From: a virus
Lineage: Duplodnaviria; Caudoviricetes
Direction: 5' to 3' (one strand)
IMG/VR virus record: IMGVR_UViG_3300033516_000067
Location: 1-27,174 of that record
DNA: 27,174 nucleotides
The notes beneath the pieces are model-generated. The model worked only from the letters and a program-made list of their open reading frames with translations, did no database searches and had not been told where the DNA came from. This document shows, in pieces, positions 1,957 to 20,611 of the stretch (the stretch's first letter is position 1; every line of letters begins with the position of its first letter). Made by a program: the position numbers and the translations under genes.

Positions 1957-1986
1957 AAGAGCCCGCCACTGTGCGGGCTTTTTCTT
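1957..1986 (+). terminator. Rho-independent terminator
   Basis: AGCCCGC-CACTGT-GCGGGCT followed by TTTTCTT. Confidence 0.85.
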
Positions 1987-1987
1987 G

Positions 1988-2010
1988 GTCGTGACACCAA
2001 GATAACGACA
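1988..2010 (+). promoter_or_regulatory. Putative late promoter 1 (GTCGTGAC-N2-CAAGAT-N6-ATG), leaderless
   Basis: Octamer 1988-1995, -10-like hexamer 1998-2003, predicted +1 = A of ATG 2010; directly follows a terminator; no SD. Confidence 0.75.
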
Positions 2011-2903
2011 TGAAATTCAATTCTCTGCAAGCACTCAGTTGCGGTAATGCGATCCGCATCATCGTCGAGCCGACTGCGGGCGAGTCTCGGTGGCGCATTC
2101 TGCGCAAAGAAACCAATGACTTTGCTGGGGCGGATGACCCGGGCGCATTTCGTGTTCATGATGGGGCGGACAGATTCCTGACTGATGCGCGTTTGCTGGC
2201 AAATGGCGTGACTTACTTTTACGCAGTTTTCGGGCGCATCGGTGATGTTTGGGCGGAGCCTGTTGTCTTGTCGGCTGTCCCGGCCGCAACCTTTGACGAC
2301 CTCAGTGTTGACGTTCAGGAGCTGGTGCGGGAACGGCTGGACCTGACGCTCAACGCCATGATCGCTCGCGGGAAGTTGGCTCTGACCAAGACGTCGCTTC
2401 CGGTCATGTCAATCCCTTTTTACACCCAAGGGGCAGAGTTTCCTGTGGTGACGGTGCTCTTTGGCGGCAGCTCTCCTTCTGTGCATGCACTGGGGGACGT
2501 AATGGGCAGCGATGTGCTGATTGAAGATGGGGTTGCCGAGATGCAGGGCTGGCTGTCTGCTGTGACCCTGGAGGTGTCAGCCTGGTCGCTGAATGCCGAA
2601 GAGAGAAACGTCCTTCGACAAGGGTTGGCCTCTGCTGTGGCGGCCAACCTGCATGTGTTTGACGATCTTGGGCTGCAGATGTTTGAGGTGCAGTCGGTGC
2701 AGGACACTGAAGACACGCAATCCATGAACGTCCCGGTCTATCAGACCATGATGCGATTGGGTTGCACGGCGGCGACCGTGGCTACCGACGAGTCCGGGCT
2801 TGTTGGCGATGTTGTGTTTTCCCGTCCGGGAACGTCTGGAGGCACGTCTGGCGGCGCAACGGTCGGCAGCATCGTGCTGGACAACGATTGTTTATGTTGC
2901 TAA
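2010..2903 (+). CDS. Putative tail terminator/completion protein with N-terminal FN3-like beta domain
   Basis: 297 aa just upstream of the sheath; N-terminal WRILRK..FLTD..L.NGVTYFYAVF is FN3-like; C-terminal FPVVTV..LEVSAWSLNAEERNVL fits tail-terminator-type proteins (inference). Confidence 0.55.
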   Translation: MKFNSLQALSCGNAIRIIVEPTAGESRWRILRKETNDFAGADDPGAFRVHDGADRFLTDARLLANGVTYFYAVFGRIGDVWAEPVVLSAVPAATFDDLSVDVQELVRERLDLTLNAMIARGKLALTKTSLPVMSIPFYTQGAEFPVVTVLFGGSSPSVHALGDVMGSDVLIEDGVAEMQGWLSAVTLEVSAWSLNAEERNVLRQGLASAVAANLHVFDDLGLQMFEVQSVQDTEDTQSMNVPVYQTMMRLGCTAATVATDESGLVGDVVFSRPGTSGGTSGGATVGSIVLDNDCLCC

Positions 2904-2925
2904 GTTTATTTTTTAAGGGGTTTTT

Positions 2926-3153
2926 ATGAGTAATGAACAAGTGGCCAAGGCTGCCAGCAAAGCAAACCAGGCGCCCGCGCCGACGAGTTTTGACTTGTCG
3001 CTCGATGAGTTCTGTGCCCGCCTGTCTGCATCAAAAGTCGGACCCGAAATGATCGGAGGCTTTTACCAAGCTCAGAAAGCAGCAGAAAAGACAAACGGCA
3101 GCGATGCGGATTTTTCCGCAGCCTTTGCCATTTTTGAAAAACAACCCGCATAA
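2926..3153 (+). CDS. Small hypothetical protein preceding the tail sheath
   Basis: 75 aa; AAGGGG RBS; fills the gap between neighbours; LSLDEF..MIGGF recalls the small pre-sheath gene of Herelleviridae. Confidence 0.7.
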   Translation: MSNEQVAKAASKANQAPAPTSFDLSLDEFCARLSASKVGPEMIGGFYQAQKAAEKTNGSDADFSAAFAIFEKQPA

Positions 3154-3165
3154 AGGAGCAGGGAC

Positions 3166-4878
3166 ATGGCTTTATTTTTCAATGGTCGTCAGTGGATTTC
3201 TCCCGCCGTCATGTCGGTTGTGGATGACAGCCGGATGTATGGACGCAAGCCGTCCGATGGCAACAACTTGGCCCTGATCGGCCGGTCTGACGGTGGCGCG
3301 CCAAACAAAGCGCTGGTATTTGGCTCTACTTCCGAGGCCAAGGCGATCCTGCGCGGCGGCGATTTGCTCCGGGCCGTTGAGCGCGCCTTTAATGCGTCCG
3401 CGCAAAGCAATGGACCCGCCAAGATCACGGTTGTCCGGGTTAACCCGGCAACACAGGCATCCTTGACGCTGAAGGACGCTTCTGCTGGGGACGCCATTGA
3501 TCTAAAGTCAACGAATTACGGGTTGCTGGAAAACCAGATTAAGGTCAAAGTCGAGGCTGGTACCAATACCGGGCTGAAGTTGACAACGCAATTTGGCACA
3601 TCGTACACATCCAAAGACGATGTGGCGCGGTCTGCATTTTCGGTTCAATATTCCGGCACGGGAACTGGCACCATCACGGTTGGCAACACCGCAGTCAGCT
3701 TGCTGCTGGACACCGTCACCACGACGATTGACCTGAATACCTACTTCACGGTGCAGATGCTTGTTGATCGACTGAATGCAGTTACCGGAATTGCGGCGGC
3801 TGTTCTTGACGGCAATGGCGATAAGCCGTCTGTCAATGGATTGGACGGTTTGACCAGCCAGGACATTAAAACTGCCCCGGTGAATGTCTCAGCAAACCTG
3901 CAGGCTGTCGTTGACTGGTTTAACTCACTGGGCGAGGAATTTGTCACGGCCACTCGGTCTGCAACAGCCACCAAAGTGCCAGCGCCCCTGGCTTTTACCT
4001 ATCTTTCTGGCGGCTCGGACGGTCTGGTGACAAATGCCGAATGGGCAGCAGCCTTTGACGTCCTGCAGTCAGAAGATGTTCAATGGGTGGTGCCGCTATC
4101 TGGCCTGGCTGCCATCCACTCGATGGCGGACGCGCATGCGGCTTATATGTCAAACATTGGGCGCAGAGAGCGGCGCTGCATCTGCGGAACGACATCAGGA
4201 ACCACTGACGCGAACGCAATCCTAGCCGCCAAGACGTTGAACAGCGACCGCACATCTCTCACGCATCTTGGCATCTATGACTATGACCAGTACGGGAAAC
4301 TGGTTTTGTTTGAGCCCTACATTGCGGCGGCCATGATTGCAGCAGCGTTTTCCGGCTTGAACCCCGGCACCCCGCTGACCAACAAGAGCATCAAGATTGC
4401 CGGGCTTGAGCGCAAACTGCGCAACCCGTCGGATACCGACAGTCTGCTCTTGGGCGGGGTGTTGTGCATTGAAGACACACCAGAAGGCTTCAAAGTCCTG
4501 CAGTCCATTTCCACCTGGATGATCAATGACAACTACAACCGCCGTGAAGTGTCGGTTGGCGTTGCATGCGACTTCATGATGCGCAAGGTCCGGGGCTCAG
4601 TAGAGCAGCTACGCGGCTCGAAAAACAACCCGCAATCTCTGGCGTTGGCTTTGGAGATGGTCAAGGCGGCGCTGCTGGAACTGTCCCGGCCAGAGCCAAG
4701 CGGGCCAGGCGTGCTGGCTGGAGATACGGTCAACCCGCCATTCAAGAACTTGAGCGCATCACAGGAAGGCGATGTGATGCGTATCGAGTTCCAGGCCAGC
4801 CCGGTGTTGCCCATCAATTACATCCCGATCACGGTGTATGCGGTGCCTTACGCTGGTAGCTCGCTGGCAGCGACCTAG
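3166..4878 (+). CDS. Contractile tail sheath protein
   Basis: 570 aa; RBS AAGGAG; LALIGRSDGGAPNK..EAKAILRGGDLLRAVERAF, LSGGSDG, and C-terminal REVSV..IEFQASPVLPINYIPITV sheath signatures; N-terminus resembles the phage K/A511 sheath. Confidence 0.92.
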   Translation: MALFFNGRQWISPAVMSVVDDSRMYGRKPSDGNNLALIGRSDGGAPNKALVFGSTSEAKAILRGGDLLRAVERAFNASAQSNGPAKITVVRVNPATQASLTLKDASAGDAIDLKSTNYGLLENQIKVKVEAGTNTGLKLTTQFGTSYTSKDDVARSAFSVQYSGTGTGTITVGNTAVSLLLDTVTTTIDLNTYFTVQMLVDRLNAVTGIAAAVLDGNGDKPSVNGLDGLTSQDIKTAPVNVSANLQAVVDWFNSLGEEFVTATRSATATKVPAPLAFTYLSGGSDGLVTNAEWAAAFDVLQSEDVQWVVPLSGLAAIHSMADAHAAYMSNIGRRERRCICGTTSGTTDANAILAAKTLNSDRTSLTHLGIYDYDQYGKLVLFEPYIAAAMIAAAFSGLNPGTPLTNKSIKIAGLERKLRNPSDTDSLLLGGVLCIEDTPEGFKVLQSISTWMINDNYNRREVSVGVACDFMMRKVRGSVEQLRGSKNNPQSLALALEMVKAALLELSRPEPSGPGVLAGDTVNPPFKNLSASQEGDVMRIEFQASPVLPINYIPITVYAVPYAGSSLAAT

Positions 4879-4896
4879 TCGGTAATGCCGAAACAA

Positions 4897-4925
4897 GGAA
4901 CCCGGTTTTCCGGGTTTTTTTATTT
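4897..4925 (+). terminator. Rho-independent terminator after the sheath gene
   Basis: AACCCGG-TTTT-CCGGGTT followed by TTTTTATTT. Confidence 0.85.
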
Positions 4926-4947
4926 GGCAGTCCGGCCTGCTAATTCG

Positions 4948-4970
4948 GTCGTGACACAAGTATTGGAAGC
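4948..4970 (+). promoter_or_regulatory. Putative late promoter 2 (GTCGTGAC-N2-AAGTAT), leadered transcript for the tube operon
   Basis: Octamer 4948-4955, hexamer 4958-4963, predicted +1 near 4970; lies just downstream of a terminator; ATG at 4997. Confidence 0.72.
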
Positions 4971-4996
4971 CATAGCAACTCTTTGAGTAGTACAAA

Positions 4997-5416
4997 ATGG
5001 CAACCAATCTACAAGTCCGCACTGGCAACAAAATCACCGTGAAAATTGGTGGCAAAGACGTGGGCCTAATCGGCTCAATCCGCGCCTCAGACAACTACGG
5101 TTTAGAGCAGGCATCTGGCATTGGTGACATTCATGTCATCGAGTATGTGCCAACCACCGCCGTGCATTCGCTATCGGTACAGTCGATGGTGCTTTACACA
5201 AAGTCGCTGCTGCAGGCCGGGGTGACCCCTGAAAATGGCGCCATCACTCTCAATGGTGTGGTGGTCGATATTGTCATCACTGACAAAGACAAGGGCGTGC
5301 TGCGCACCTACTTGAACTGCAGCTATGACTCCGGTGACCTCGAAATCAGTGCCCACAAGATTGTCAGCGCCAACTGCCAATTTAAGGCGCTTGATGTGAC
5401 TGGGCAGCCGGCATGA
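4997..5416 (+). CDS. Tail tube protein
   Basis: 139 aa after the sheath; VRTGNKITVKIGGKDVG..NYGLEQASGIGDIHVIEYVP matches the recalled Twort-like tube pattern VHTGNTV...I.GK.VG..YG...V.EIG.I.P.E.V. Confidence 0.85.
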   Translation: MATNLQVRTGNKITVKIGGKDVGLIGSIRASDNYGLEQASGIGDIHVIEYVPTTAVHSLSVQSMVLYTKSLLQAGVTPENGAITLNGVVVDIVITDKDKGVLRTYLNCSYDSGDLEISAHKIVSANCQFKALDVTGQPA

Positions 5417-5736
5417 GGCGCGCAGCCCCTAACGACTTCCAGGTGCAGGTGGAAGGCCTGGGGTCGTTTACGATTGGTCGGCGCACCATGCGCGACGAGT
5501 TTGCGGTGGCGGCAGAGTACTCACGCTTGACTGAAGGCGTGCAAACACCAACCGACTTTTTGCATTACTACGCCCGTGCTTTTGCAACCGCAAAGGTTCT
5601 TGTCGTGTCGGCTCCGTCCGGCTGGGACATCGAAAAACTTGACCCACAAGAGGATGCTTCCTACGCGCAGATGATAGACGTCTTTGACGCTATCCGCGCG
5701 AAGGAAGCCGATTTTCGAGAGAAGCCGGGATCGTGA
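5413..5736 (+). CDS. Tail assembly chaperone (G-like)
   Basis: 107 aa between tube and tape measure genes; ATGA overlap with the tube stop; ends ..ADFREKPGS. Confidence 0.75.
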   Translation: MRRAAPNDFQVQVEGLGSFTIGRRTMRDEFAVAAEYSRLTEGVQTPTDFLHYYARAFATAKVLVVSAPSGWDIEKLDPQEDASYAQMIDVFDAIRAKEADFREKPGS

Positions 5737-5998
5737 TTGCAAAGAGGACGCCAAAGAAGTAGCTAAGACCGTCCGGTTCTGGTTTCGACGAAAGTATTCA
5801 CTCCCGCCCGCTGATCCGCGCTATCTGGATATGACAGAAGAGGGGATGCTGACTGAGTATTGGGCGCATTACTACTACGACAAACCGGACAGCGAATGGG
5901 AAGAGGACACCGACAACTTCGACGAAGAGGTAGCCGCCATGGATGCCGAGATGGGCATTCCTCCTGATGATGATTTTGAGGACATAAGCAATGGCTGA
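5717..5998 (+). CDS. Tail assembly chaperone extension (T-like), probably reached by +1 frameshift
   Basis: Overlapping +1 frame ORF (open from 5684) with no convincing own start; FWFRRKYSLPPADPRYLDMTEE and acidic tail; slippery GAT TTT CGA at 5710-5718. Confidence 0.7.
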   Translation, partial: ERSRDRDCKEDAKEVAKTVRFWFRRKYSLPPADPRYLDMTEEGMLTEYWAHYYYDKPDSEWEEDTDNFDEEVAAMDAEMGIPPDDDFEDISNG

Positions 5999-8900
5999 GT
6001 CGATACCCATTAAAGTCGAAACAAACGAGGCCGCTGCTGCCATCAACGAGCTGGGGAGATCGGCGGCAGATGCTGCTGAAGATTTCTCTGGTCTGACCAG
6101 CATGCTTAACGAGTTCCTGAAGCGCAGGAGCACGGAGCTTGGCAAGCCGGTTACTCTTTTCAGCCAAGATGATGTTGAGACGTTAAAGGCCATTCGGGCC
6201 GAATTCCAGTTATTGGTGCGAGACACCAAGGGCAGCGGCATCGGCAAGCAATTGAGCACGCAGCCTGGCGGGGCTGGCGCGGTGCGATCACCCGAGCAGA
6301 TCAATGGCAGGCTGCTGGAAAGTGACAGCCAGAAGCTGCAGGCAACATTGGACAAAGTCCTGATGTCTGTGTTGCGCAGACTCAGTGCGCGCACTGGCGC
6401 TTCAGTCACCGGGCTGACGGCAAATGATCTTGGCGCCGGAGGGCGACAGCACCCTCCGGTTAACCCGCCAAATCCGAACCAACCAAATCCTGACCCGGTT
6501 CCTCCAAGAAGGCCAAAAAGGCCAGATACACCGCAATCAAAAAGCGCCAAAGTGCTCGGTTATGCCGCGCAGCAACTGTCCCCACTGGGGGGTGGCGCAA
6601 TCAATCAAGCGGCATCTATGGGTGCCGAGGGCATGGCCGGGCGCGGCATGGGCGGCATGCTTGCAGGAGGCGGCATGGCAGGGCTGGCGGCAGGCGCCGG
6701 GATCGGCCTTGTCGCGGCAGGAATCTACAAGGCGGCCAGCGCGGTCAATGAAGGCATTGACCGCGAGAAAGTGCTGGCCACTGACATCGACAAATTCCGG
6801 CGCTCGCTCGGGACTACGGCTGACAGCTTCAGCGAGCTGCGGGACCAGAGCCGCATGGTTGGCGATCAGTTCAACCTGAATTACGAAACATCCAGAAAAA
6901 TCACCACCGAATTCGCCAACATTGCCAAGACCAACAAAGGCGCAGTAGATCAGGCGTCCGAAGGGGTTGGTCTGGCACAGGCGGTTGGCGTTGATGAAGC
7001 GCAAGGCGCCGGATTCATTGCGAGCTTGCGAAGAGACCAGAGCATTGGTGATAAAAAGTCGGATGCTCGCATCATGGGCATTCAGTTCGCTGAGGCACTA
7101 AAGCGCACCGGGTCCACTCTAAACGCCGGCGAGCTGATGTCCGCCATCCAGGGGTTTAGCAGCGACACAGCGCACCGTAGCCTCACGGCTGGCAACCTGG
7201 ACGGTTACGCTGGCATGCTGTCCGCGATGGTTGGGTCCAAGACGCCAGGTCTGGATATTGGCAATTCGCGCAGTCTGATGGCGCGTGCAGATGCATCGTT
7301 TCAGTCTGGCGGTGGCGCAGGAGAGGCCTCTAAAACTCTGCAGTTCATGGCGCTTGGCGGCGATCGTCTTGGCCTGATGGGCGTCAAGATGCGAGAGGCT
7401 GCAGGCATGATGGCCACCAACGATCAGGTTTTTGGTGACCCGAACAACCCCGTCAACAAGTACACAGGCGGGCAGATGCTTGGCCACAAAGGCAGCAGCA
7501 CCGGGCTGGAAGATTTGATCAAGATGATCAAGGACAATTCTGGCGGGAACAAAGAGCTTGAGATTAACACCCTCTCAAACCACCTGAATCTGAATCCCAA
7601 TGAAGCGGCCACTTTCCTCAACATGGAAAAAGAGGGCAAGCTGGGTGACACGCTGGCCATGGCGCGCCAGTACAAAGGTGTTGACCTCAATAAAATGTCC
7701 AGCGATGGCTACACCATGCTGGCCGACGTTGCGCACGCAAAAGGGGACAAAGGTGAACTGGAGTCCATCCGGGCCGGCCTTAATAAGCGAGCCGACTTGA
7801 GTGACGACCAGAAGTCTCAATTGGCGTCAATGGTTGGAATGGACGGCGCCAAGCTGCAGGACGCTCTGGTGAAATTCAGCACCACTTTAGAGCGCGAGAA
7901 AACGGAAGGCCAGAAGATACAGGAAAGCGCCACCAAGACAGCCAATGCAACCGACCGGTTGGCCGCGTTGTTAATTCCTGCCTCTGTAAAAAGCAATGAG
8001 CTGCTTTCCGCACTGGTGGAAAAAATGGCTCCTGACTCTGAAGCGGCAAAAAGAATCGCTGCAGCCAAAGAGGACGACCAACTGCGCGAGAAACGTCAAA
8101 TGGTCGAGTCTGGCGAGATTGATCCTGATCAGGTGGAGGCCAGAAACAGGAGATACAACCAGATAGCTTTTGAGATGCGCACCACCAACAGTACGCGCGA
8201 AAGCAAGGTCCGCAACGCGACAAAGCAAATCCAGGAGCTTGGCGACAAGGCCGTGCCCTACAGCGAGGTCGAAACAGCAAACCGACAATCCAGAAAACCA
8301 GATGAGGCCAAAATCAAAGAGGATGCGGCCATTTGGAACGAGGCGCAAGCGGCGGCAAAAAAGAAAGACGCAGAATCGTTGATTCGTAGTGGGGTTGACC
8401 CGTCCGAGCAAAAACCAAAATCTTCGACATCGCCATCGCAGCCAGTTGTGCCTGATGAAGTCCGGCGCAAGACTGCTGCAGAGTTGGCGGCTGAGACGGC
8501 CGCAGCAAAGCCGGCGGCTGTTGCTGGGGCAGATGGCACAGGCAAGCTGAGAATCAAAAATCGGGATGAGAATCTTGGAGGCGGCGAAACCAAGCCAGGT
8601 GTTTTCGACTTTGCGAATGCAATGCAGTCATCTCTTGGAGACGACTTCAAACAGTTGACGGCGGCGAACGACCGCTACCATCAGAAAAACTCGCCAAATT
8701 CCAAGCACACAAAGGGTCTGGCGTTTGATTTCACTGTGAATGACGCCAAGAAAAGCGCTGCTGCTGCAGCGTCAGCCAGGGCAGAGTTAGAGGCCGCAGG
8801 CGTCAAAGGGCGCGTTATTGACGAATACAAAAAGCCATCCTCAAAAAGCACAGGGGGGCACATCCACGTCGAGTTCGCCAACGAGAGGGAAGCCGCGAAC

Positions 8901-9149
8901 TATGAGAAATATAAAAAACGCTCCGACAGTCCATTGCAAGTTCCGAAGCCGGCAGGTATCCCTGATGGCAACCCCCAGGCCAGCGAGCAGGCCAAGGTTG
9001 AACGACAGATGGTCCAGGTGGCGTTTTCGAACCAGAAGCACTCCATCGACGTCAATGTCAATTCTGGCAATGGTGCGGATCGGCAGCAACAATCGCACCA
9101 GGTTGGGTGGGTTTCCAAGCCAAAAGCCGCAGGCACATTAGCAGCATGA
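5991..9149 (+). CDS. Tape measure protein with C-terminal M15/LAS-type Zn peptidase motif
   Basis: 1052 aa, Ala/Gly-rich helical, with a hydrophobic Gly/Ala stretch; follows the chaperones; GAGG RBS; C-terminal SKHTKGLAFDF..GGHIHVEF. Confidence 0.85.
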   Translation: MAESIPIKVETNEAAAAINELGRSAADAAEDFSGLTSMLNEFLKRRSTELGKPVTLFSQDDVETLKAIRAEFQLLVRDTKGSGIGKQLSTQPGGAGAVRSPEQINGRLLESDSQKLQATLDKVLMSVLRRLSARTGASVTGLTANDLGAGGRQHPPVNPPNPNQPNPDPVPPRRPKRPDTPQSKSAKVLGYAAQQLSPLGGGAINQAASMGAEGMAGRGMGGMLAGGGMAGLAAGAGIGLVAAGIYKAASAVNEGIDREKVLATDIDKFRRSLGTTADSFSELRDQSRMVGDQFNLNYETSRKITTEFANIAKTNKGAVDQASEGVGLAQAVGVDEAQGAGFIASLRRDQSIGDKKSDARIMGIQFAEALKRTGSTLNAGELMSAIQGFSSDTAHRSLTAGNLDGYAGMLSAMVGSKTPGLDIGNSRSLMARADASFQSGGGAGEASKTLQFMALGGDRLGLMGVKMREAAGMMATNDQVFGDPNNPVNKYTGGQMLGHKGSSTGLEDLIKMIKDNSGGNKELEINTLSNHLNLNPNEAATFLNMEKEGKLGDTLAMARQYKGVDLNKMSSDGYTMLADVAHAKGDKGELESIRAGLNKRADLSDDQKSQLASMVGMDGAKLQDALVKFSTTLEREKTEGQKIQESATKTANATDRLAALLIPASVKSNELLSALVEKMAPDSEAAKRIAAAKEDDQLREKRQMVESGEIDPDQVEARNRRYNQIAFEMRTTNSTRESKVRNATKQIQELGDKAVPYSEVETANRQSRKPDEAKIKEDAAIWNEAQAAAKKKDAESLIRSGVDPSEQKPKSSTSPSQPVVPDEVRRKTAAELAAETAAAKPAAVAGADGTGKLRIKNRDENLGGGETKPGVFDFANAMQSSLGDDFKQLTAANDRYHQKNSPNSKHTKGLAFDFTVNDAKKSAAAAASARAELEAAGVKGRVIDEYKKPSSKSTGGHIHVEFANEREAANYEKYKKRSDSPLQVPKPAGIPDGNPQASEQAKVERQMVQVAFSNQKHSIDVNVNSGNGADRQQQSHQVGWVSKPKAAGTLAA

Positions 9150-11325: not shown

Positions 11326-11335
11326 TCTGGCGGCT

Positions 11336-11358
11336 GTCGTGACGGTACGCTGACCTCA
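11336..11358 (+). promoter_or_regulatory. Putative late promoter 3 (GTCGTGAC-N2-TACGCT-N6-ATG), leaderless
   Basis: Octamer 11336-11343, hexamer 11346-11351, ATG 11358 exactly 14 nt after the octamer; no SD. Confidence 0.78.
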
Positions 11359-12107
11359 TGCCATCCCTATTCAATCAAGACCAGTTTCTGGAGTCGTTCC
11401 GGGCCGACAGGTTGCCTGCTGTGCAGCGCTACTTGTCAGGCTCGGTAAGTGACGATTACCTTCTGGCAAAACTGTTTGCTGCTGAATCGACCGTACAGCG
11501 CGAGTTGCACGTTTACTTGACGCCTACCGTGTTGTTTCCAAATGACCCAACACAGGCCGAAATTGACGCCTTGGCGGGGGCTTCTTGGGACGTTGACCCT
11601 GGTTACGACTACACCGAGGACATGATCCAGCCTGGCGGTTGGACGTTCATCCCGCTGCGGCAGCGCCCGGTGATCGCGCTGGAGTCCATCAAGTTCATCT
11701 ACCCGTTTGGCGGCACGGTACTCACAGTTCCACCCGAGTGGATCAAGCTCGACAAGAAATACGGCCACATCCGGTTTCTGCCGACCAACGCCTTTCTGGG
11801 TGCCTTGGGCGGCATGTTGATCGGGGGCATGGGGCTGCAGGGGTCACCGCAGTTCATTGAAGTGCGCTACACGGCTGGGCTAAAAAATGCGGCTGCTGAC
11901 TACCCTGATCTGCTTGATCTGGTCCAGCGCATCATCATGCGCAGCCTCATGTCAGACGCCATCGTTTCGGCGTCTGAGTCGATCAGTGCCGACGGCCTGA
12001 GCCAAAGCAAAAGCGCTCCCGATCTGGACAAGATGCAAGACGGCATTGACAAGTCCATGGAACTGCTGCGCCAGCGCATTCACGGCGTGCCATTGATGGT
12101 GATGTGA
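11358..12107 (+). CDS. Head-tail adaptor/neck protein
   Basis: 249 aa; AESTVQRELHVYL, LRQRPVIALESIKF, IEVRYTAG, SESISADGLSQS are typical of head-tail connector (adaptor) proteins. Confidence 0.7.
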   Translation: MPSLFNQDQFLESFRADRLPAVQRYLSGSVSDDYLLAKLFAAESTVQRELHVYLTPTVLFPNDPTQAEIDALAGASWDVDPGYDYTEDMIQPGGWTFIPLRQRPVIALESIKFIYPFGGTVLTVPPEWIKLDKKYGHIRFLPTNAFLGALGGMLIGGMGLQGSPQFIEVRYTAGLKNAAADYPDLLDLVQRIIMRSLMSDAIVSASESISADGLSQSKSAPDLDKMQDGIDKSMELLRQRIHGVPLMVM

Positions 12108-12736
12108 TGCAACTTGACCCGAACGCCTTCAATGGGCTCTTAAACTTTCTGGGCCAGACGTTTTCGTGGCGCAAATCCTACGCATGCCCATGCGTCAACC
12201 CTGCAACCAATGCGCCACAATTAAACTGCCCGCACTGTCACGGCAAAGGGTTTCTCTGGGCAACTGCGGTCACTGGCGTGGCTGGCGTCCCTAGCCAAAA
12301 GGTGCAGCGCGAGTTTGCAAAGTTTGGGCAATGGGAAAGCGGAGACATGATGATTTCCGTGGGCAGCGATTCGCCTCTGTACGGCATGGGAGAGCGCGAC
12401 CGGGTGGTTCAATTGAATGGCGATGACCCGTTTTCTATCAACCTGCGCAAAGGCCACAACGACAAGCTGCCTTGGACGGCAAAGAAGATTGACCGGGTGT
12501 TTTGGCTGTCCGGTGCCGACATTGTTGAAGGCGGCATTCCAACACAAGACGCCACGGGGGCGCTGGTGTTCGCCTTCGGCGCGCCACCAACCGGCGTGAC
12601 TTACTCGGTCACCGGCACCAAGTACAGCGAGTACTTCGTGTTCCAGGAGTTCCCGACGGATAGAGGCCACCACTTCGGGGCCAAGTTGCCGCTGCGGGTT
12701 CAGCTCAGGCGGTTTGACCTATTTGGCAGGTCGTGA
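12107..12736 (+). CDS. Head closure/stopper-type neck protein with CPC..CxxC Zn motif
   Basis: TGATG overlap gives ATG 12107 (ORF track uses GTG 12104); WRKSYACPCVNP...CPHCHGKGF resembles the Cys-containing neck protein recalled in Herelleviridae. Confidence 0.7.
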   Translation: MQLDPNAFNGLLNFLGQTFSWRKSYACPCVNPATNAPQLNCPHCHGKGFLWATAVTGVAGVPSQKVQREFAKFGQWESGDMMISVGSDSPLYGMGERDRVVQLNGDDPFSINLRKGHNDKLPWTAKKIDRVFWLSGADIVEGGIPTQDATGALVFAFGAPPTGVTYSVTGTKYSEYFVFQEFPTDRGHHFGAKLPLRVQLRRFDLFGRS

Positions 12737-12752
12737 CAGGACTATGAGGATG
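12730..12752 (+). promoter_or_regulatory. Putative late promoter 4 (GTCGTGAC-N2-GACTAT), overlapping the upstream stop codon
   Basis: Octamer 12730-12737 contains the stop TGA 12734-12736; hexamer 12740-12745; predicted +1 at G12752. Confidence 0.72.
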
Positions 12753-12815
12753 CGCTCGGGATACGGTAGCTCCGGACAAGGCTGACGGCATAGCAGCTTT
12801 CCTTTGCGCATTCTT
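12746..12815 (+). ncRNA. Putative structured RNA leader upstream of rha (outer stem enclosing two hairpins)
   Basis: GAGGATGCGC (12746-55) pairs with GCGCATTCTT (12806-15); inner hairpins TCGGGA/TCCGGA (loop TACGGTAGC) and AAGGCTG/CAGCTTT (loop ACGGCATAG). Folded by hand only. Confidence 0.5.
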
Positions 12816-12837
12816 CTCTATGCGCCCAAGGAAAATT

Positions 12838-13416
12838 ATGCCTACTGTTCAATTCCCAGTTCTTAACTTTCAAGACTTCATTGCTGCCGATGGTGGCGGC
12901 AGATTGATTACAAGCTCGCATCAAGTTTGCTCTGTGTTTGGAAAGCGTCACGCCGATGTTCTGCGTGCAACCGAGAACATTATTGCAAACTGCCCTCCTG
13001 AATATGCCCAACGCAATTTTGCGTTAGTAATGGAATCAATGACTTACGTCGATTCTTTCGGCGATTCTGTGACAAAGGAAACGGGTCGCGTTGGTCATAT
13101 TGAAATGACAAAGAATGGTTTCATTTTGCTTGCCATGGGGTTCACTGGCAAAAAAGCCATGAGCTTCAAAATCGCATACATCAATGCGTTTGATGCGATG
13201 GCGGACTTTATTCTGAACAAGGCGATTGGGATTCGCTTCAAACTTGATCGCAATGAGCTTGAAGAAAAAGACAGCTTTCGACGTGGATCAATTCATGGTC
13301 GTGGTTTGCGCGAGCGCAGGATTGAAAAACCTTTACTCAAGGCAGAGCACGAAGTGTTGAGCGCAAAACTCCAGCCGTTTCTGCCGATGTTTGAAGAGCA
13401 CCCAACGGTCCAGTAA
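12838..13416 (+). CDS. rha: Rha family phage regulatory protein
   Basis: TSSHQVCSVFGKRHADVLRA..NFA..MTKNGFILLAMGFTGKKAMSFKIAYINAFDAM is the Rha signature; start chosen at ATG 12838 behind AAGGA (alternative ATG 12820); more AT-rich than neighbours. Confidence 0.9.
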   Translation: MPTVQFPVLNFQDFIAADGGGRLITSSHQVCSVFGKRHADVLRATENIIANCPPEYAQRNFALVMESMTYVDSFGDSVTKETGRVGHIEMTKNGFILLAMGFTGKKAMSFKIAYINAFDAMADFILNKAIGIRFKLDRNELEEKDSFRRGSIHGRGLRERRIEKPLLKAEHEVLSAKLQPFLPMFEEHPTVQ

Positions 13417-14201
13417 TGGCCTACACCGTTTCATTCGATGCTGCCAGCTTGATCGCTGGCATGAACTTGCAGCTTGAGAAGGCCATAGCCCAAGCCGTGC
13501 AAAACACGGCATTGACGACACAAGCCGCCTGGCAGCAGACTGTGCTGCAAACACCCGGAATTTGGCAGCCAACCAAAGACCGGTACGCGGGTTCCATAAA
13601 AGTGGAATTCGACACAAATGGCATGGGCGCACGGATTTACTCCGATGACCCGATGGCCACTCCGATTGAGCGTGGTATGCCAGCGCGCGACCTGAAGCAA
13701 ATGCTCAATACGTCCCTGAAGACAAGGGTTGCAAAAGGTGGAAAGCACGCCGGGCAGCGGTATCTCATAATTCCTTTCAGACATTCGACCCCAGGCTACA
13801 CCGCACACGGCAACGATATGCCGGCCGATGTCTATGCCAAAGCCAAGGAACTGACCAAGTCAAGCGTCACCAAGATGAGTTTCAGGAAAAACCAGATTGG
13901 GGTGTATGGCTTTACTGGCGCACGGGCTGGGTCAAAGTTGCTTGTCCGCTCGCGGACATACAACTGGGGCGGACGACTCGGGCCTGATGTTCCCAAGCGG
14001 TTTCAGGGCATGGTTCGGTTCAACACCAGCAGCGGGGGACAGCAATCCAGTTCGTACATCACATTCAGGTGCATGTTTGAGGACTCTACTGGCTGGATCA
14101 TCCCGGCCAAGCCTGGGCGCTACATAGCCAAATCAATATCAGAACAAGCCCAGCAAATGCTCAAGACCGAGGTCACGGCTGCCATCGCCAGTGTGTCGTG
14201 A
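13416..14201 (+). CDS. Putative neck/tail-completion protein
   Basis: 261 aa, basic; YAGSI, IERG..RDLK, RYLIIPFRH, YITFR, GWIIPA motifs resemble myovirus neck proteins; TAATG coupling to rha. Confidence 0.6.
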   Translation: MAYTVSFDAASLIAGMNLQLEKAIAQAVQNTALTTQAAWQQTVLQTPGIWQPTKDRYAGSIKVEFDTNGMGARIYSDDPMATPIERGMPARDLKQMLNTSLKTRVAKGGKHAGQRYLIIPFRHSTPGYTAHGNDMPADVYAKAKELTKSSVTKMSFRKNQIGVYGFTGARAGSKLLVRSRTYNWGGRLGPDVPKRFQGMVRFNTSSGGQQSSSYITFRCMFEDSTGWIIPAKPGRYIAKSISEQAQQMLKTEVTAAIASVS

Positions 14202-14217
14202 CTCTATCCTGCCCTGA
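14195..14217 (+). promoter_or_regulatory. Putative late promoter 5 (GTCGTGAC-N2-TATCCT-N6-ATG), leaderless
   Basis: Octamer 14195-14202 contains the stop TGA 14199-14201; hexamer 14205-14210; ATG 14217; no SD. Confidence 0.78.
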
Positions 14218-15356
14218 TGATTGACCAAGGCACCTATCTCGGCAAAGCCATCAAGCCCAGCCACGAACACGACATCTGGGCGCCGTTTGATTCGCCCTAT
14301 CTTGCCGATCTGGTCGAAGCCTTCACCCACACCGGCCAGGCCCACATCCAGTCCTTCAAGGACGCGCTTTCGTGGTGGCTGGCTACCCACGGTCAACCCC
14401 ACCAGAAAAATGCGTCACTGTCCCCACTGATGCCCGACATGCCTGTGCATTGGACCCAGACTGAGCTTGACGCCTGGAGCGCCTACTTCCACTCCAAACC
14501 CCGCGCACTGTGGCAGCCCGAGGACTGGTCCATGCTGGTCGAGTGGCTGCTGCAGCAATACTGGAGCCCGCAGTGGGCCGACAGCATGGCAAGCTGGCTA
14601 TCGGTCAAGTCCACGTTGCTTGGGCAAATCGAGGCCGGTCTGGCGGCCAACCCGCCAAGTGCGACAGTGGCCGCTGGCGTTGCTGCGGCGCTTCCGGTAA
14701 GCATCCCGTCTGTCATTGAGTTGGGACTGCCTGTGTCAAAGATCACCGAGGCCATGATCGCCTTTGCCCGGGTGCGCTGCGCTACAGCCATCGTTGACAT
14801 GGGTGAGAGCATGAAATCAGGCATCAGGTCTATCGTGCTGGAGCATCAAAAAGCGGTCATGCTTGGGGGCAAGCTGGAAAACATCCAGACCCTGCTTTTT
14901 GACAAGTACGCCACGGCAAACCGCGACTGGCGGCGCATCGCGGTCACAGAGGTGTCTGAAAACGCCGCGCAGGGCGTGGTGGCGGCCAGTGCCACTGGCG
15001 ACAAGCTCAAGCGCATTGAACAGTACAAGGGCGTGTGCGCTTGGTGCCACAGCATCAACGGCAAGATCGTCACCGTGGTGGACCCGGCCAAGCCAAACAA
15101 AGACGGCATGAACGAGGTTTGGGTTGGCAAGACCAACATCGGGCGGTCATCAGCGCCAAAAAAGCGGGTTGACGGCAGACTCTACGACCGCGAGCCAGAC
15201 GAGCTGTGGTGGCTGGCAGCCGGCGCACAGCACCCGCACTGCCGGGGTCGGTTCATTCTGTTTACCGGCATTGACCCTGCCAAGTACGATGCTTTCATGG
15301 CTGGCGTCAAAGCAAAAATGGCCCAACACCAGAAAGACGCTGCTGCCGGGTCGTGA
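14217..15356 (+). CDS. Head morphogenesis protein, SPP1 gp7/Mu gpF-like
   Basis: 379 aa; RDWRRIAVTE, CAWCHSINGK and QHPHCRG match the R...IA.TE / C..C / HPxCRC signature. Confidence 0.78.
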   Translation: MIDQGTYLGKAIKPSHEHDIWAPFDSPYLADLVEAFTHTGQAHIQSFKDALSWWLATHGQPHQKNASLSPLMPDMPVHWTQTELDAWSAYFHSKPRALWQPEDWSMLVEWLLQQYWSPQWADSMASWLSVKSTLLGQIEAGLAANPPSATVAAGVAAALPVSIPSVIELGLPVSKITEAMIAFARVRCATAIVDMGESMKSGIRSIVLEHQKAVMLGGKLENIQTLLFDKYATANRDWRRIAVTEVSENAAQGVVAASATGDKLKRIEQYKGVCAWCHSINGKIVTVVDPAKPNKDGMNEVWVGKTNIGRSSAPKKRVDGRLYDREPDELWWLAAGAQHPHCRGRFILFTGIDPAKYDAFMAGVKAKMAQHQKDAAAGS

Positions 15357-15372
15357 CATGACTATGCGCACA
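15350..15372 (+). promoter_or_regulatory. Putative late promoter 6 (GTCGTGAC-N2-GACTAT-N6-ATG), leaderless
   Basis: Octamer 15350-15357 contains the stop TGA 15354-15356; hexamer 15360-15365; ATG 15372; no SD. Confidence 0.78.
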
Positions 15373-17474
15373 TGGCAGCACCACCACCGACAAGTCAGAG
15401 ATTCCTGCACATTTCGTTTGCCCTTGTATTTGATGGCAACGCGATAGGCTATATCACTCTGCCAATAAACCCCGAGGAATTGACACGATCTGAGCCATCC
15501 AGGATGTCGGTCGTGAACACAATTGGCGGGGCGTGGGTGGATTCGTTTGGGCGCGGTCTGTCCACGTTGACAATCGCCGGGAACACCGGCTGGGGGTCTA
15601 ATGGCCGCCCAGATGGAGTGCAGCAGTTTATCCGCCTCAGAGACCACTTTATTCACAAGTGGCATGAGATTCGTCAAGACCGAATAAACAACGGTCTGAA
15701 TCCTGACGATGTGCGTCTGATGCTTATTGACCCATTGAACGGGCAGTATGTGGCTGACGTTGTGCCAATGGTGTTCACGTTAAAAAGAAGCAAATCGCAA
15801 CCGTTGCTGTTGGTTTACAACATCGTTTTGACTGTGGTGAACGAATCAGCAGAGAACAAATACCCGGAGCTATTAGAGGCAATAAACCCGGCTGACAAGG
15901 CGGCCACATCGATTGCATCGATGACGGACTCTGTTGTCAGCCTGACAGGCAGCGCGAGCCCTGCGTCAGTGGGCGGCGGGTTAATTGGTAAGCTAAACGG
16001 ATTCGCCGCTGATATTGGATCGCTCGGGACGTCAGCTTTGGATGCGACAAAGAATGCCTTTGCGCCGATCATGTCCACGGCGTCAGACATTATTGCCACG
16101 GCGAATGCTGCAAAACGTGTTTTGACTGAGGCAGAGAAAGCCGTTGTCGGGGTTGCCAGAGAGTTATCCGCAACGGCCACAAAAGTTTGGGATGCTGCTG
16201 GGGCTGTGGCCGGCATTCCAAATGCCGCAAAGGCGGCCATCATGCAGGTCAAGAGGGAGTTTTCCAATTTGGGATGTGTTTTGAGCAATGGATTCACCGA
16301 TGCCATTGAAGCCGCGACAGCCCCATTGCTCCCATATGGGTCATCCAATTGCTCCAGCACGGCTGGTGGTAGCGCCCCGTCAGACGGGGCCAATCCATTT
16401 GCTGGCACCACAACGCCTGGTCCTGTTGGCACGACGCCTGATGCTGTTGCGGCGATCAATGAAATCAACAATCTTGACTTGACGCAGCCAGTTGATCAGA
16501 CCTCTTTATCTGCGCTGATCGCGCGGGTGAGTGCAGGCGTTACCGTTGCTGGGACAGCGCCACCTGCCGCGACAGTGCCTGCACCAACGGTGACGGCGAT
16601 CAGCCCATCAACAGGGCCAAGGGGCGCTAGGACGACTGTCACGATTACCGGTACGAATCTCAGCGGGGTCACGCGCGTCAAGATAAACGGAGTCCTGTGC
16701 TCTGCCTTGAGTGCTAGCACCGATACATCAATCACCTGCGTCACCCCGGCTTCGGGGGTAATTGGCGCAGTCAGTGTGGTGGTGACAACGGCTGGGGGAG
16801 ATAGCGCAGGCAACAATCTGTTTACTTACTTCGAGCCAACGCCAACGCCTGAGCCGACACCGACACCAACGCCGACACCAACGCCGACACCAACGCCAAC
16901 GCCTGAGCCGACACCAACGCCAACGCCAACGCCTGAGCCGACACCGACACCGACACCAACGCCAACGCCAACGCCAACGCCAACGCCAACGCCAAGTTCG
17001 ATACCGGCCATTACATGGCAAGAGGCTATGGATCGCTGGGTGTCAGAGCACCCCACAGCAACACTTCAGAAATTCCTTGACGTCCTTGAGCAATCTCATG
17101 TTGATGGGTACGATGTAGAAACTGGCCTTGCTATAAATAATGGTGTTACATATTACATAGCAAAGTATCACAAGCCAACAGCACAGCCTCCGAAAGAAAT
17201 AACATATTACTTGAGCACCCTTGGGTATGTTGTGCCAGGACAAATTATTAAGGTGTATTTCAGCGTCACAAATCCAACAGAAGAAGCGATAAAACTTTCT
17301 TATACATATTTTAACGGAACGTCACATTCTTCTGAAATAGATATAGAAACGGTGAATGTATCTGAGACAAACAGGATATTCAAGCCGACAATAAATCCAA
17401 TCTCTGATATATCAGTAATCCATCTATATGCAAAAGGTACTGATGGCAGCGTGAAAGCATCGTTCGTACAATGA
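15372..17474 (+). CDS. Tail-tube-initiator-like baseplate protein extended by an IPT/TIG domain, Pro-Thr linker and AT-rich C-terminal domain
   Basis: 700 aa; [35 protein letters not shown] is tube-initiator-like; [29 protein letters not shown] is IPT/TIG; long (PT)n tract. Confidence 0.7.
16833..16994 (+). repeat. Hexamer tandem repeat (CCRACR, with interspersed CCTGAG) encoding a (PT/PE)n linker
   Basis: About 160 bp of CCAACG/CCGACA units seen directly. Confidence 0.95.
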
Positions 17475-18079
17475 CAATTTCTTGGCGACTGGTCACCACC
17501 AGACACAATGACACCCTTCAGAAGCTCGCTCACCGCGAGTTGCAGAATGCTGCGCGTTGGCCAGAGATTGTCCAGCTTAACGGGTTGCGTCCGCCTTATC
17601 TCACCGGCGTGCCTCTGCACCCTGGCGTAATCAATGGCCAGGTATTGCTGTACGGAAATCCAATCAAAGTCCCTTCATCCAATTCCGATTTATCAACAGG
17701 GGTATCTTCGCTGCAGGCCTTTGGGGCTGATATTGCGCTAGAAGAAGGGAATTTAACAGTTGATGTTTTTGGCGACTTGAATCTGGCGCGCGGCATTCCA
17801 AATTTGAAGCAGGCGCTTGAATTGCGCTTGAACAACGCCATAGGATGCTTGCCATTCCATCCCCGCTATGGCAATGCTGCCGGCCGTCTTAAAGGGCACA
17901 AGCAAGACGGCAACATCCATCTTTTGATATTGCGCTTTTGCGAAGAGACATTGATGGCCGATCCGCGTGTGGCAGGCGTGTCGGACAGTACCGCGACACC
18001 CAAGGACGATGCTGTTCTGATCAAGATTACAGCGTTGGCCACTGACGGCACGGCGCTGCAACTTCAACTTGAAATTTAG
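17471..18079 (+). CDS. LysM-like (P2 gpX-type) domain fused to gp25/gpW-like baseplate wedge/sheath initiator
   Basis: N-terminal [30 protein letters not shown]; C-terminal [35 protein letters not shown]. Confidence 0.8.
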
Positions 18080-18086
18080 GGCCAGC

Positions 18087-19193
18087 ATGAGTTTTCAAAT
18101 CAAAAACTTCCAGTCCATCGTGGCCTCGCTGATCAACGTGTCACGGGCCTCTCAGACAAGAATCACAGACTTTTCTGTTGGCGCGGTAGCTCGCACCTTA
18201 ATGGAGTCTCCTGCGGTAGAGATTGAAGAGCTGTATTTGCAAATGTACCTCGGGCTGCAGGACGCCATCCCTGTTGCCATTTACAAGGCGTTTGACTTTG
18301 ACATTGTTGAAGCGCTGCCTGCTGCTGGTGTGCTGACTGTCAGTTTTCCGGCCGCAGTCTCTGCTGTGTCTATCCCTGAAGGGGCGTCCTTTGAAGTGTC
18401 ACAAAAAGGGCTTGTTTTCCAGTCACTCATGTCGCTATCGATTGCGGTTGGCGATACGCAGGTCGTGATTCCTGTGGCTTGCACCACTGCTGGTACAGCC
18501 GGAAACATTGCCGCCAACGAGATCACAGACAGCGAGTCTCTATTGCCACCCGGCGCCACTCTCACAAATTTGCCTTTTGTCAGCGGGAAAGACGCAGAGA
18601 GCGAAGTCGAAAGAAAGACAAGATTCAACAGCTTCATTCTGTCGATTTCTCGCGGCACGGTCGATGCCATCCGGTTTGCGGCTGAGTCTGTTCAGGTTTT
18701 TTCTTCCGCAGGGGCTGTTCAGGAGTATGTGACCCGTATCGGCATTGATGAACACGCCGGGCGACTTGAGGTTTATGTTTCAAGCTCGGTCGGGGCGCCT
18801 ACATTGACTTTGTTGTCAAAGGTGCAAGGTGCAATTGATGGCTATGTTGACCCAGCAACGGGGAGACGAGTTAACGGCTACCGTCCTGCCGGTGTGTCAG
18901 TCACTGTTCTGCCGATGCAGGAACGAGTTGTTCCGATTGGGTTGTCAGTTTCCACCAGGAGTGTTGCTCAAAACACAGCCGAAATGATCAGCAATATCAC
19001 GACAGTGCTGGCGCGGGTTGTTGCAGGCGTTTCCCCAGGGTCCGTGTTGCGGGTTGATGCCATCACCAGCGCGGTTTTGTCGCTACCAGACGTCATGACT
19101 TGTAACGTGACCAATACAAACAATTCAGTTTGCGGTCAGTTTGAGCGCCTCATGCTTGGCGCTGTCACAGTGACATGGGTGTCAAATGCGTAA
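18087..19193 (+). CDS. Baseplate J-like wedge protein
   Basis: Start at ATG 18087 (MSFQIKNF); ITDFSVGAVARTLME, CTTAGTAGNIAANEI, SGKDAESE.ERKTRF, SRGT, YRPAGV. Confidence 0.88.
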   Translation: MSFQIKNFQSIVASLINVSRASQTRITDFSVGAVARTLMESPAVEIEELYLQMYLGLQDAIPVAIYKAFDFDIVEALPAAGVLTVSFPAAVSAVSIPEGASFEVSQKGLVFQSLMSLSIAVGDTQVVIPVACTTAGTAGNIAANEITDSESLLPPGATLTNLPFVSGKDAESEVERKTRFNSFILSISRGTVDAIRFAAESVQVFSSAGAVQEYVTRIGIDEHAGRLEVYVSSSVGAPTLTLLSKVQGAIDGYVDPATGRRVNGYRPAGVSVTVLPMQERVVPIGLSVSTRSVAQNTAEMISNITTVLARVVAGVSPGSVLRVDAITSAVLSLPDVMTCNVTNTNNSVCGQFERLMLGAVTVTWVSNA

Positions 19194-20565
19194 CAAGCTG
19201 CTGAGTCATCTCTACAGCGGGTTCAATCAAGACCCCGATCCGATACTGGCGTTCGAGATTTGGCATCCTGACGGCGCGGCCTGGAATGTCAAAAATCGGC
19301 AGCTTGTTGTCAGCACTGATGCTGGATCGGTATTGACCAGCATAAACCTGGAGAGCGTCGGTACGGTGTGGGATGTTGTGTGCCGGTTGATGGATGTAGG
19401 AGTCCGAGTAAGCCGAATCAATGCCGACACCGTAGATTCCAGCGCGCTGATTCTTATGGACGGCGCCGGCAGAGAAAGTCAGTACACAAACTCCATTTAT
19501 GGATACAGGTCCGCACTTTGGGGTCTTTTAGAAGGATATGCCACCGAGGTCCAGAGCGCTTGGTACGCTGTTCCGCAAGCGCTCGAACAGGCCAGGCTAC
19601 ACAGTGCAGATGACGATTGGCTTGACTTGTGGGGGAGCTACTTCGGAGTAACGCGCCGATCTGGGCAGGCGGATGCCTCGTATCTGGCCACCATCGTGGC
19701 TGAGACGCTGAGAGCAAAATCCAATCGCTACGCCATTGAGAATGCCGTTCTGGACGTCACAGGCAGCCAGGTGCAAATTACCGAGCCGTGGCAGAGCATC
19801 TTTCGTCTGGATGCTTCGGCGCTGTCAGGGGCTCATGCATTGCATGATGGTGTTGTCGTCGGCCACCACTTGATTCGACCGTTGATTCCAAGTGGCAGCG
19901 ATTGGGATGCCGTGATGGCAGTTATTGAGCGCACGCGGGCCGCAGGTGTGCTGATTTCCAATCCGGTCCGCATTGTGCCAGCCAGTTTAGTCCCGGCAGC
20001 CATGCCAATCACACCGAATGTTTGGGCATCTCGGTTTTTTGATCACACCTTTTTGGTTGGGAAGATCAACGCCAATGCGTTAGGCCGGCTTGTGCTTGAT
20101 GGTGACCGTCCGGCAATAAACCATCTGGTTGCAATGTTCTCGCTTGGCAGTCTTGGTAACGCACAGGGAGTCAACAACGATCAGCACATGACCCCGTGGC
20201 GCAGCGTTGCCAAGGCCTCGGTTGCGTTGTCTGATGGCTTTGCCTTAGGCAACCTCAATGCCGTTCTGGGCCGGGGGCAGCTTGTCCGCAGGATTCTGCC
20301 AGTCCCATCATTGTCTGGCCTGCTTGCGTTGTCTGGTGCCAGTGCTGTGACAACAATTGACCGGGTAACAGAGATCGTTTTTGATGCACACGGTGCGTTG
20401 CTCTTACTTGGGGCGACAGTCAGCCAATGCGGGATGTGGCCAGAGATTTGCATGTCTTACATGGTTCGACTCAATGAGGATACTGGTTGGACGGGCTTTT
20501 GGACTGCTGACCGCGCATGGCACGACCAATCTGTTGTTGGCATGGCCATCAGCCAATCGACCTAG
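19186..20565 (+). CDS. Baseplate wedge protein (P2 gpI-like core)
   Basis: 459 aa after J; HSADDDWLDLWGSYFGVTRRSGQADASY and ERTRAAGV motifs. Confidence 0.72.
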   Translation: MRNKLLSHLYSGFNQDPDPILAFEIWHPDGAAWNVKNRQLVVSTDAGSVLTSINLESVGTVWDVVCRLMDVGVRVSRINADTVDSSALILMDGAGRESQYTNSIYGYRSALWGLLEGYATEVQSAWYAVPQALEQARLHSADDDWLDLWGSYFGVTRRSGQADASYLATIVAETLRAKSNRYAIENAVLDVTGSQVQITEPWQSIFRLDASALSGAHALHDGVVVGHHLIRPLIPSGSDWDAVMAVIERTRAAGVLISNPVRIVPASLVPAAMPITPNVWASRFFDHTFLVGKINANALGRLVLDGDRPAINHLVAMFSLGSLGNAQGVNNDQHMTPWRSVAKASVALSDGFALGNLNAVLGRGQLVRRILPVPSLSGLLALSGASAVTTIDRVTEIVFDAHGALLLLGATVSQCGMWPEICMSYMVRLNEDTGWTGFWTADRAWHDQSVVGMAISQST

Positions 20566-20568
20566 CTG

Positions 20569-20591
20569 GTCGTGACGCTACCTTATGTGGC
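20569..20591 (+). promoter_or_regulatory. Putative late promoter 7 (GTCGTGAC-N2-TACCTT), leadered transcript for the fibre operon
   Basis: Octamer 20569-20576, hexamer 20579-20584, predicted +1 near 20591; SD GAGGT 20601-20605 before ATG 20612. Confidence 0.75.
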
Positions 20592-20611
20592 AACACACAT
20601 GAGGTATTTTC

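Follow-up and report, generated by a model that had tools for sequence, protein, structure and literature searches.

Several phages are known to express late genes from promoters that have a -10 box and no -35 box. The Mu C protein has been described as a late activator of sigma70 promoters of this type, at which its QxDLF clamp-binding motifs are required (PMC12867686). In the Thermus phage Lalka27a, the reported late transcription starts map 6 nucleotides (nt) after a phage-specific -10 box and the RNA is mostly leaderless; its many late promoters use the host polymerase, and a phage factor has been proposed (bioRxiv 10.64898/2026.04.20.719267). Phage P1 (NC_005856) has many dispersed late promoters with a box near -22, a -10 box and no -35 box, and the gene of its activator Lpa lies near the packaging site, pac. 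Here we analysed a stretch of 27,174 nt from a virus of the Caudoviricetes (IMG/VR record IMGVR_UViG_3300033516_000067; the whole stretch is hereafter called the window), in which the octamer GTCGTGAC recurs at a fixed distance from a putative -10 box. Comparison with related phages makes it very probable that this element, in its general form GTCGTGAY-N2-NANNNT, is the late promoter of PHB04/Dolphis-like phages, and nearly as probable that the promoter is phage-activated, with a phage protein at the octamer and the host sigma70 polymerase.

According to this reading, the host sigma70 RNA polymerase would recognise the motif at a minimal -10 box, and the part of the -35 box would be taken over by a phage protein that binds the octamer (-22 to -15). 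The bases A-11 and T-7 are those of a sigma70-type -10 box. In sequence and position the motif resembles an activator-dependent -35-less promoter: it has a -10 box with an upstream site at fixed spacing, no -35 consensus, and a sense position before virion, packaging and lysis genes. It does not belong to the extended -10 class, as its TG lies at -18/-17 and not at -15/-14, and position -15 is C or T. It appears to work like the late promoters of P1 and Mu and to belong to neither system, because box, spacing and candidate protein differ. The P1 box has 9 base pairs (bp) and stands 4 nt before the -10 box at the promoter LPpac, whereas the octamer has 8 bp and stands 2 nt before it. The box sequences differ except for a common GTGAC at LPpac, and no 9-bp -22 box at the P1 spacing was found. 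Mu C binds TTAT-N5-6-ATAA at four promoters, in contrast to 7-26 sites directly beside the -10 box in the phages studied here.

In the window the octamer was present in seven copies, exclusively on the plus strand, whereas 100 shuffled sequences contained 0.69 copies on average and 3 at most. An earlier sequence-only reading had placed these copies at 1988, 4948, 11336, 12730, 14195, 15350 and 20569, each followed after 2 nt by a hexamer with invariant A2 and T6, and both the coordinates and the hexamers were borne out at all seven sites. That reading had also noted no shared -35 box, and indeed the best match to TTGACA at a spacing of 16-18 bp comprised 1-2 of six bases at six sites and 4 of six at 20569. 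When the window was scored with a matrix whose 163 training sites came from other genomes, the seven copies reached 18.3-20.8 bits and the next-best position only 8.2 bits; therefore no further copy in the window has been missed. The features, in window coordinates, are the following.

1960..1986, plus strand: terminator-like hairpin with a T run, from sequence and fold, ending just before copy 1 (hairpin also listed on the minus strand)
1988..2003, plus strand: predicted promoter copy 1, CAAGAT, leaderless; predicted +1 is the A of ATG 2010
4899..4925, plus strand: terminator-like hairpin with a T run, after the tail sheath gene (also listed on the minus strand)
4948..4963, plus strand: predicted promoter copy 2, AAGTAT; predicted +1 at 4970, 27-nt leader to gene 4997-5416
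11336..11351, plus strand: predicted promoter copy 3, TACGCT, leaderless; predicted +1 at ATG 11358, whose gene matches phrog_772
12730..12745, plus strand: predicted promoter copy 4, GACTAT, with the stop codon of the preceding gene inside the octamer; predicted +1 at 12752
14195..14210, plus strand: predicted promoter copy 5, TATCCT, leaderless, with the stop codon of the preceding gene inside the octamer; predicted +1 at ATG 14217
15350..15365, plus strand: predicted promoter copy 6, GACTAT, leaderless, with the stop codon of the preceding gene inside the octamer; predicted +1 at ATG 15372
20569..20584, plus strand: predicted promoter copy 7, TACCTT; predicted +1 at 20591, 21-nt leader to baseplate gene 20612-21094 (PF25691)
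20579..20606, plus strand: hairpin of 11 pairs; the -10 box and discriminator make up its 5' arm, and the GAGG ribosome site lies in its 3' arm

The window is a one-strand virion module with capsid, sheath, tape measure, baseplate and fibre genes, and its source is a PHB04/Dolphis-like myophage. Its capsid protein is 59-67% identical to those of PHB04, Dolphis, Jeremy, ST4, fHe-Yen8-01, ECML-606-1 and phiT5282EW, 38-43% identical to those of Touem01, Mecenats66 and the plasmid RHOApe, and 33% identical to those of the Thermus Lalka phages. Lalka27a is thus a distant relative that offers an experimental parallel with another consensus, reported as TAGGGT plus a C at -25.

In nearly all relatives examined, a group of phages of roughly 90 kb, GTCGTGAY-N2-NANNNT occurred at fixed spacing in 7-26 copies per genome. 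The pattern TCGTGAY-N3-A-N3-T was found 8-16 times in eight of the ten named relatives, twice in Mecenats66 and not at all in Lalka8, and its reversed control gave 0-1 matches per record. Among 164 GTCGTGAY octamers of 11 records, 122 were accompanied by A-11 and T-7, whereas spacings shifted by -2, -1, +1 and +2 brought the A and T into register at only 1, 2, 15 and 9 octamers. Almost all of the 122 sites lay on the capsid strand (117, against 5 on the opposite strand), and orthologous genes retain the motif (the orthologue of gene 2010 in 12 records, portal in 10 and protease in 10). The sequence-only reading had expected hits in relatives only before late genes, and the sites are fixed-spaced, sense-oriented and placed before virion, packaging and lysis genes. 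Its octamer position of -22 to -15, the A-11/T-7 pair, the missing -35 box and the late-gene setting likewise fit the comparative evidence. The GTC-GT-GAC dyad that it proposed is a weak idea, since the last base is T and not C at 39 of 136 sites. Mecenats66 and the genome G049 contain no exact GTCGTGAY and carry degenerate forms of the motif at the usual genes; de novo word counts in these two and in Lalka8 gave no clear alternative motif. The highest number among the records examined was observed in G008, with 26 copies in 89 kb, seven of them on the opposite strand. A literature search, mostly outside subscription journals, revealed no published description of the motif and none of late-gene control in this phage group, and the words 'promoter' and 'motif' do not occur in the main text of the Mecenats66 paper.

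We infer that transcription starts 7 nt past the conserved T, since three indirect markers, namely the position of ATG codons, helices and terminator-like hairpins, appear to agree on this +1. In four of the seven window copies (1988, 11336, 14195 and 15350) an ATG begins exactly 22 nt after the first base of the octamer (expected 0.00), that is exactly 7 nt past the conserved T at the predicted +1, and no Shine-Dalgarno sequence precedes it. In three copies (12730, 14195 and 15350) the upstream gene ends with the TGA inside the octamer; the other four are intergenic, and those at 1988 and 4948 sit directly behind terminator-like hairpins. Across 157 sites from 14 records, an ATG was located at offset 22 in 61 cases and at offset 23 in 16. 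Altogether 85 sites were of the leaderless type; the ATG opened at least 60 codons in 72 of them, and a Shine-Dalgarno-like word was found at only 5, compared with 52 of 60 control genes. A helix of at least 8 pairs extending from the -10 region into the leader was present at 22 of 72 leadered sites (expected 4.7) and at 9 of the 85 leaderless ones (expected 4.3). At copy 7, the fold energy was -15.9 for the segment -12 to +40 and -4.7 for +1 to +40, and the hairpin at 20579..20606 is predicted to fold in transcripts that read through from upstream, whereas transcripts initiated at 20591 would lack its 5' arm. For the T4 genes e, soc, 49 and I-TevI, comparable hairpins have been described, which mask the ribosome site in read-through transcripts and do not occur in transcripts made from the late promoters (PMC3014915). 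In the phages considered here, leaderless starts and ribosome-site hairpins would keep read-through RNA untranslated, and late proteins would appear only once the promoter fires. To our knowledge, leaderless late messages are unusual for phages of Proteobacteria.

As the source sequence consists of the window alone, the regulator was sought in relatives. A core screen was carried out by BLAST clustering of 13 records, followed by a search with 145 family profiles over 15 near-complete records. Outside virion and packaging genes and their antisense frames, the profiles of PHB04 gp072 and gp071 were the sole ones present in 14 of 14 members; a methyltransferase profile was present in 12. These core genes encode two cysteine-rich proteins for which neither Pfam nor PHROG gave a convincing match, and no sigma-family gene was detected among the clade core families, a scan that covered core families and not every gene of every genome. 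The sequence-only reading had assumed an activator or sigma factor encoded outside the window; the location fits the comparative evidence, whereas the sigma alternative found no support. On balance, it is somewhat more likely than not that gp072 is the activator that reads the motif, possibly together with its neighbour gp071. All ten near-complete records picked by the motif hold gp072; conversely, of 20 records chosen for their gp072, 19 contain 5-21 copies of the motif. Lalka8, which lacks the motif, gave no match to gp072 or gp071, and the plasmid RHOApe keeps both genes, yet has no match to the primase and helicase of the others.

The gp072 protein has about 175 residues, is basic (median isoelectric point 9.7) and cysteine-rich, and contains nine conserved Cys/His residues. 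A clamp-like C-terminus (QxxL[F/W]) was found in 41 of 77 gp072 proteins and in only 5 of 1,014 other proteins. The predicted complex of gp072 with the Escherichia coli beta clamp scored 0.58, while the best of three controls scored 0.00, which is weak support by the tool's own grading; the partner had a predicted local distance difference test score (pLDDT) of 71-73, and the runs shared at least 85% of contacts. Among pairs with solved structures, 116 of 157 attained the mark for such scores, as did 2 of 215 mismatched pairs; 18 of the 157 solved pairs and both mismatches attained it with 0.60 or less, and the score may reflect remembered solved clamp-peptide complexes. In the proposed mechanism, gp072 would be made earlier from an ordinary promoter and would then bind the octamer. 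In many members it would be tethered to the host beta clamp by the C-terminal QxxL[F/W] motif, and this tether would couple late transcription to replication, as in Mu C. Clamp-coupled late transcription is also described for T4 and is proposed here for many members of the clade; T4 has a sigma factor (gp55) and a clamp of its own and a promoter that consists of a -10 box alone, whereas the core screen of the clade yielded no sigma factor.

For 15 of 85 entries of the gp072 family, the 150 nt upstream of the gene contained an exact octamer, compared with 98 of 8,052 control windows (1.2%); the other strand gave 3 of 85, and 12 of 59 clusters at 60% identity were positive (40 near-duplicates had been dropped from the entries, and two of the 15 positives come from one locus). 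The full promoter preceded gp072 at 3 of 72 loci with gp071 and at 5 of 15 without it. In full phages, the octamer upstream of gp072 mostly overlaps or precedes an ordinary-looking -10 box, a position that would be compatible with self-regulation but is partly explained by the extended -10 sequence.

Comparisons with known proteins gave no family assignment. The gp072 model (pLDDT 80) had no PDB match at an expectation value (E) of 0.001, the best being VIA with Z 3.0, and a single unnamed match, 41% identical, among viral models. The gp071 model (pLDDT 89) showed a weak, non-significant likeness to zinc ribbons (Elf1, Z 4.5, root-mean-square deviation 3.0 over 52 residues; TFIIS, Z 4.2). Profile searches of solved structures gave best E values of 0.07 and 0.02, and an atlas search yielded unnamed clusters only. 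No similarity was detected between gp072 and P1 Lpa (probability 0.1%), and in Pfam and PHROG neither PHB04 protein matched the Mor-family domain at E up to 0.1 or the Ogr/Delta family. The Ogr protein of P2 and Delta of P4 bind zinc, and Delta has its own late promoter; their site lies far upstream, whereas the octamer adjoins the -10 box. Three further ideas about gp072 were rejected. A WhiB-like cysteine spacing had no Pfam or fold support; a tandem dimer in the style of P4 Delta was not found, the long L185 protein being one domain; and serine 109 does not account for the degenerate motif of G049 and Mecenats66, as G016 and L233 have the serine and normal sites. Tentatively, and with rather less confidence than for its role as activator, gp072 may represent a new family of metal-binding late activators without a known fold, which would ride the clamp, bind the octamer, license leaderless late transcripts, regulate itself, and have been captured by capsid-less satellites that use the helper's late promoter as P4 uses Delta.

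Several observations weigh against gp072 as the activator. The gene lies outside the window and is assigned from relatives, the nearest being G003 with 62% sheath identity, and the core screen can miss genes that are shorter than 45 codons or too divergent to seed a family. The clamp-like motif is absent from 36 of 77 gp072 proteins, including those of G004 and Mecenats66 and all 15 without gp071. Part of the excess of upstream octamers may stem from extended -10 promoters, which supply TGAT. Mecenats66 and G049 keep gp072 and gp071 but have only degenerate sites, and the capsid-less islands described below carry gp072 by selection, because gp072 was the query. Two more points concern packaging: in Mecenats66 the pac cut, which has been validated, lies within the end part of the gp072 homologue, at the gp072/gp071 junction, and the record of Touem01, classified by PhageTerm as headful with pac, ends 12 nt after gp072.

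Because pac is cut at this junction, the main rival explanation is a packaging factor: the late promoter would stand, while gp072 and gp071 would be small-terminase-like packaging-initiation factors acting at pac, and the activator would be another gene. We regard this as less likely than the activator role, but as a serious rival and clearly the best of the alternatives. As is the case for small terminases, gp072/gp071 lie at or over the pac site; pac sites often lie within small-terminase genes (P22, SPP1), and in P1 pac is annotated inside pacA. Five long-terminase members have a common GCGCA with a downstream A-tract at the gp072/gp071 junction. Only 6 of 17 records yielded a member of the small-terminase-like gp056 family, gp072/gp071 adjoin terminase genes in the plasmid RHOApe and a gp056 homologue in the islands L167 and L168, and satellites would gain from a packaging-initiation gene. 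However, members with gp056 still keep gp072/gp071, and in full phages gp072 mostly lacks the late promoter (present at 3 of 72 loci), unlike most packaging genes. The clamp motif has its precedent in late activators, in P1, too, the activator gene lpa stops about 360 bp short of the pac cut, and the core screen yielded no other activator candidate. As for the helix-turn-helix and helical oligomer fold of small terminases, the structure models, which are either mixed or all-beta and matched no fold significantly, speak clearly for neither reading.

The junctions with GCGCA and the A-tract include those of ST4, fHe-Yen8-01 and ECML-606-1, as well as the record ends of Mecenats66 and Touem01; in Mecenats66 the gp072 gene spans the record ends. 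Two types of terminase were observed in the group (loci G004:C1:53660-56260 and Mecenats66 29033-31654). One has about 700 residues and a small-terminase-like gene nearby; the other, of about 870 residues, carries an additional ATPase-like stretch at its N-terminus, and no small-terminase-like gene was found for it. Upstream of gp072 in Dolphis, ECML-606-1, fHe-Yen8-01, ST4, G004 and PHB04 there is an AT-rich stretch with short words repeated on its flanks in both orientations, which resembles a replication origin.

A second alternative leaves the promoter in place and dispenses with a phage activator: it would be read by the unmodified host polymerase or a host factor, with late timing set by replication, template state or read-through. 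The sigma70-type A-11 and T-7 are compatible with this, as is a motif that is nearly unchanged across alpha-, beta- and gammaproteobacterial hosts. However, the octamer has its TG 3 nt further upstream than an extended -10 promoter would require, and prophages with such promoters before lysis genes would have to keep them silent. In addition, of 25 matches to the leaderless pattern in 19 bacterial genomes (about 120 Mb), 21 lay beside a clade capsid gene, one before an island gene and only 3 elsewhere, so that 22 were within prophages or islands. The near-absence of the motif from host chromosomes outside prophages and islands implies that it is not a host signal, and we consider this alternative improbable. 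Least probable is that the octamer serves as a signal in RNA or for translation, or arises as a side effect of TGA stops at gene junctions: the upstream stop codon inside three window copies and the fixed distance to the ATG in four would suit it, but four copies are intergenic and two of them stand directly behind terminator-like hairpins, the A and T are preserved at leadered sites, the hairpins break at the predicted +1, and divergent motif pairs exist in islands.

The gp072 query also retrieved bacterial loci that lack the phage capsid. Among 19 bacterial genomes with a gp072 homologue, the clade capsid was not found in 14 (one query; some genomes are incomplete). These islands (L156, L158, L163, L167, L168, L173, L176-L179, L181 and L184-L186) are chromosomal or plasmid-borne in Burkholderiales and alphaproteobacteria. 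Ten annotated loci contain integrases, primases or replication initiators, AlpA, Rha, antirepressor and defence genes, and some islands also hold a tape-measure or hub homologue. The 14 loci (268 kb) carry 28 motif sites, whereas 3.0 were expected and 8 was the maximum in 274 simulations. A site stands directly before gp072 in 8 of the 14, and several of these form a divergent pair. The islands are likely an undescribed satellite family, although some may be phage remnants. The Delta protein of satellite P4 is reported to switch on the late genes of its helper P2 (PMC12239096). The islands, known from their sequence, resemble P4 with Delta in that gp072 lies behind the late promoter.

Now that gp072 is a named candidate, one plasmid and one reporter in E. 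coli would suffice to test what reads the motif. Should the link to the clamp prove real, gp072 would join T4 gp33/gp55 and Mu C as a third protein family, unrelated to these two, through which late transcription is tied to a sliding clamp. The motif is useful in other ways as well, for correcting start codons and for recognising a family of likely satellites, and the phage group that carries it is widespread.

With respect to the genes of the window, copy 1 precedes gene 2010-2903, a core gene of the clade with no family match, which is followed by the sheath gene. Gene 4997-5416 behind copy 2 matches phrog_985 and likely encodes the tail tube. Downstream of copy 4 lie a Rha-family gene (12820-13416) and then a phrog_16819 gene; the Rha-family gene, inside the virion module (region 12752-13416), is not a core gene, and the phrog_16819 gene is reversed in most relatives. 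The gene at 14217 is the orthologue of PHB04 gp030, with a weak minor-head match. An Rfam scan of the window at gathering scores gave no match. A 99%-identical relative, L004, aligns with the window in three blocks, with short breaks at 4388-4412 in the sheath gene and 14329-14366 in gene 14217. Finally, the gene behind copy 6 (15372-17474) encodes the tail tube initiator (PF23980), which at 700 residues exceeds the clade median of 394 and contains an added IPT/TIG domain and a long Pro-Thr repeat.

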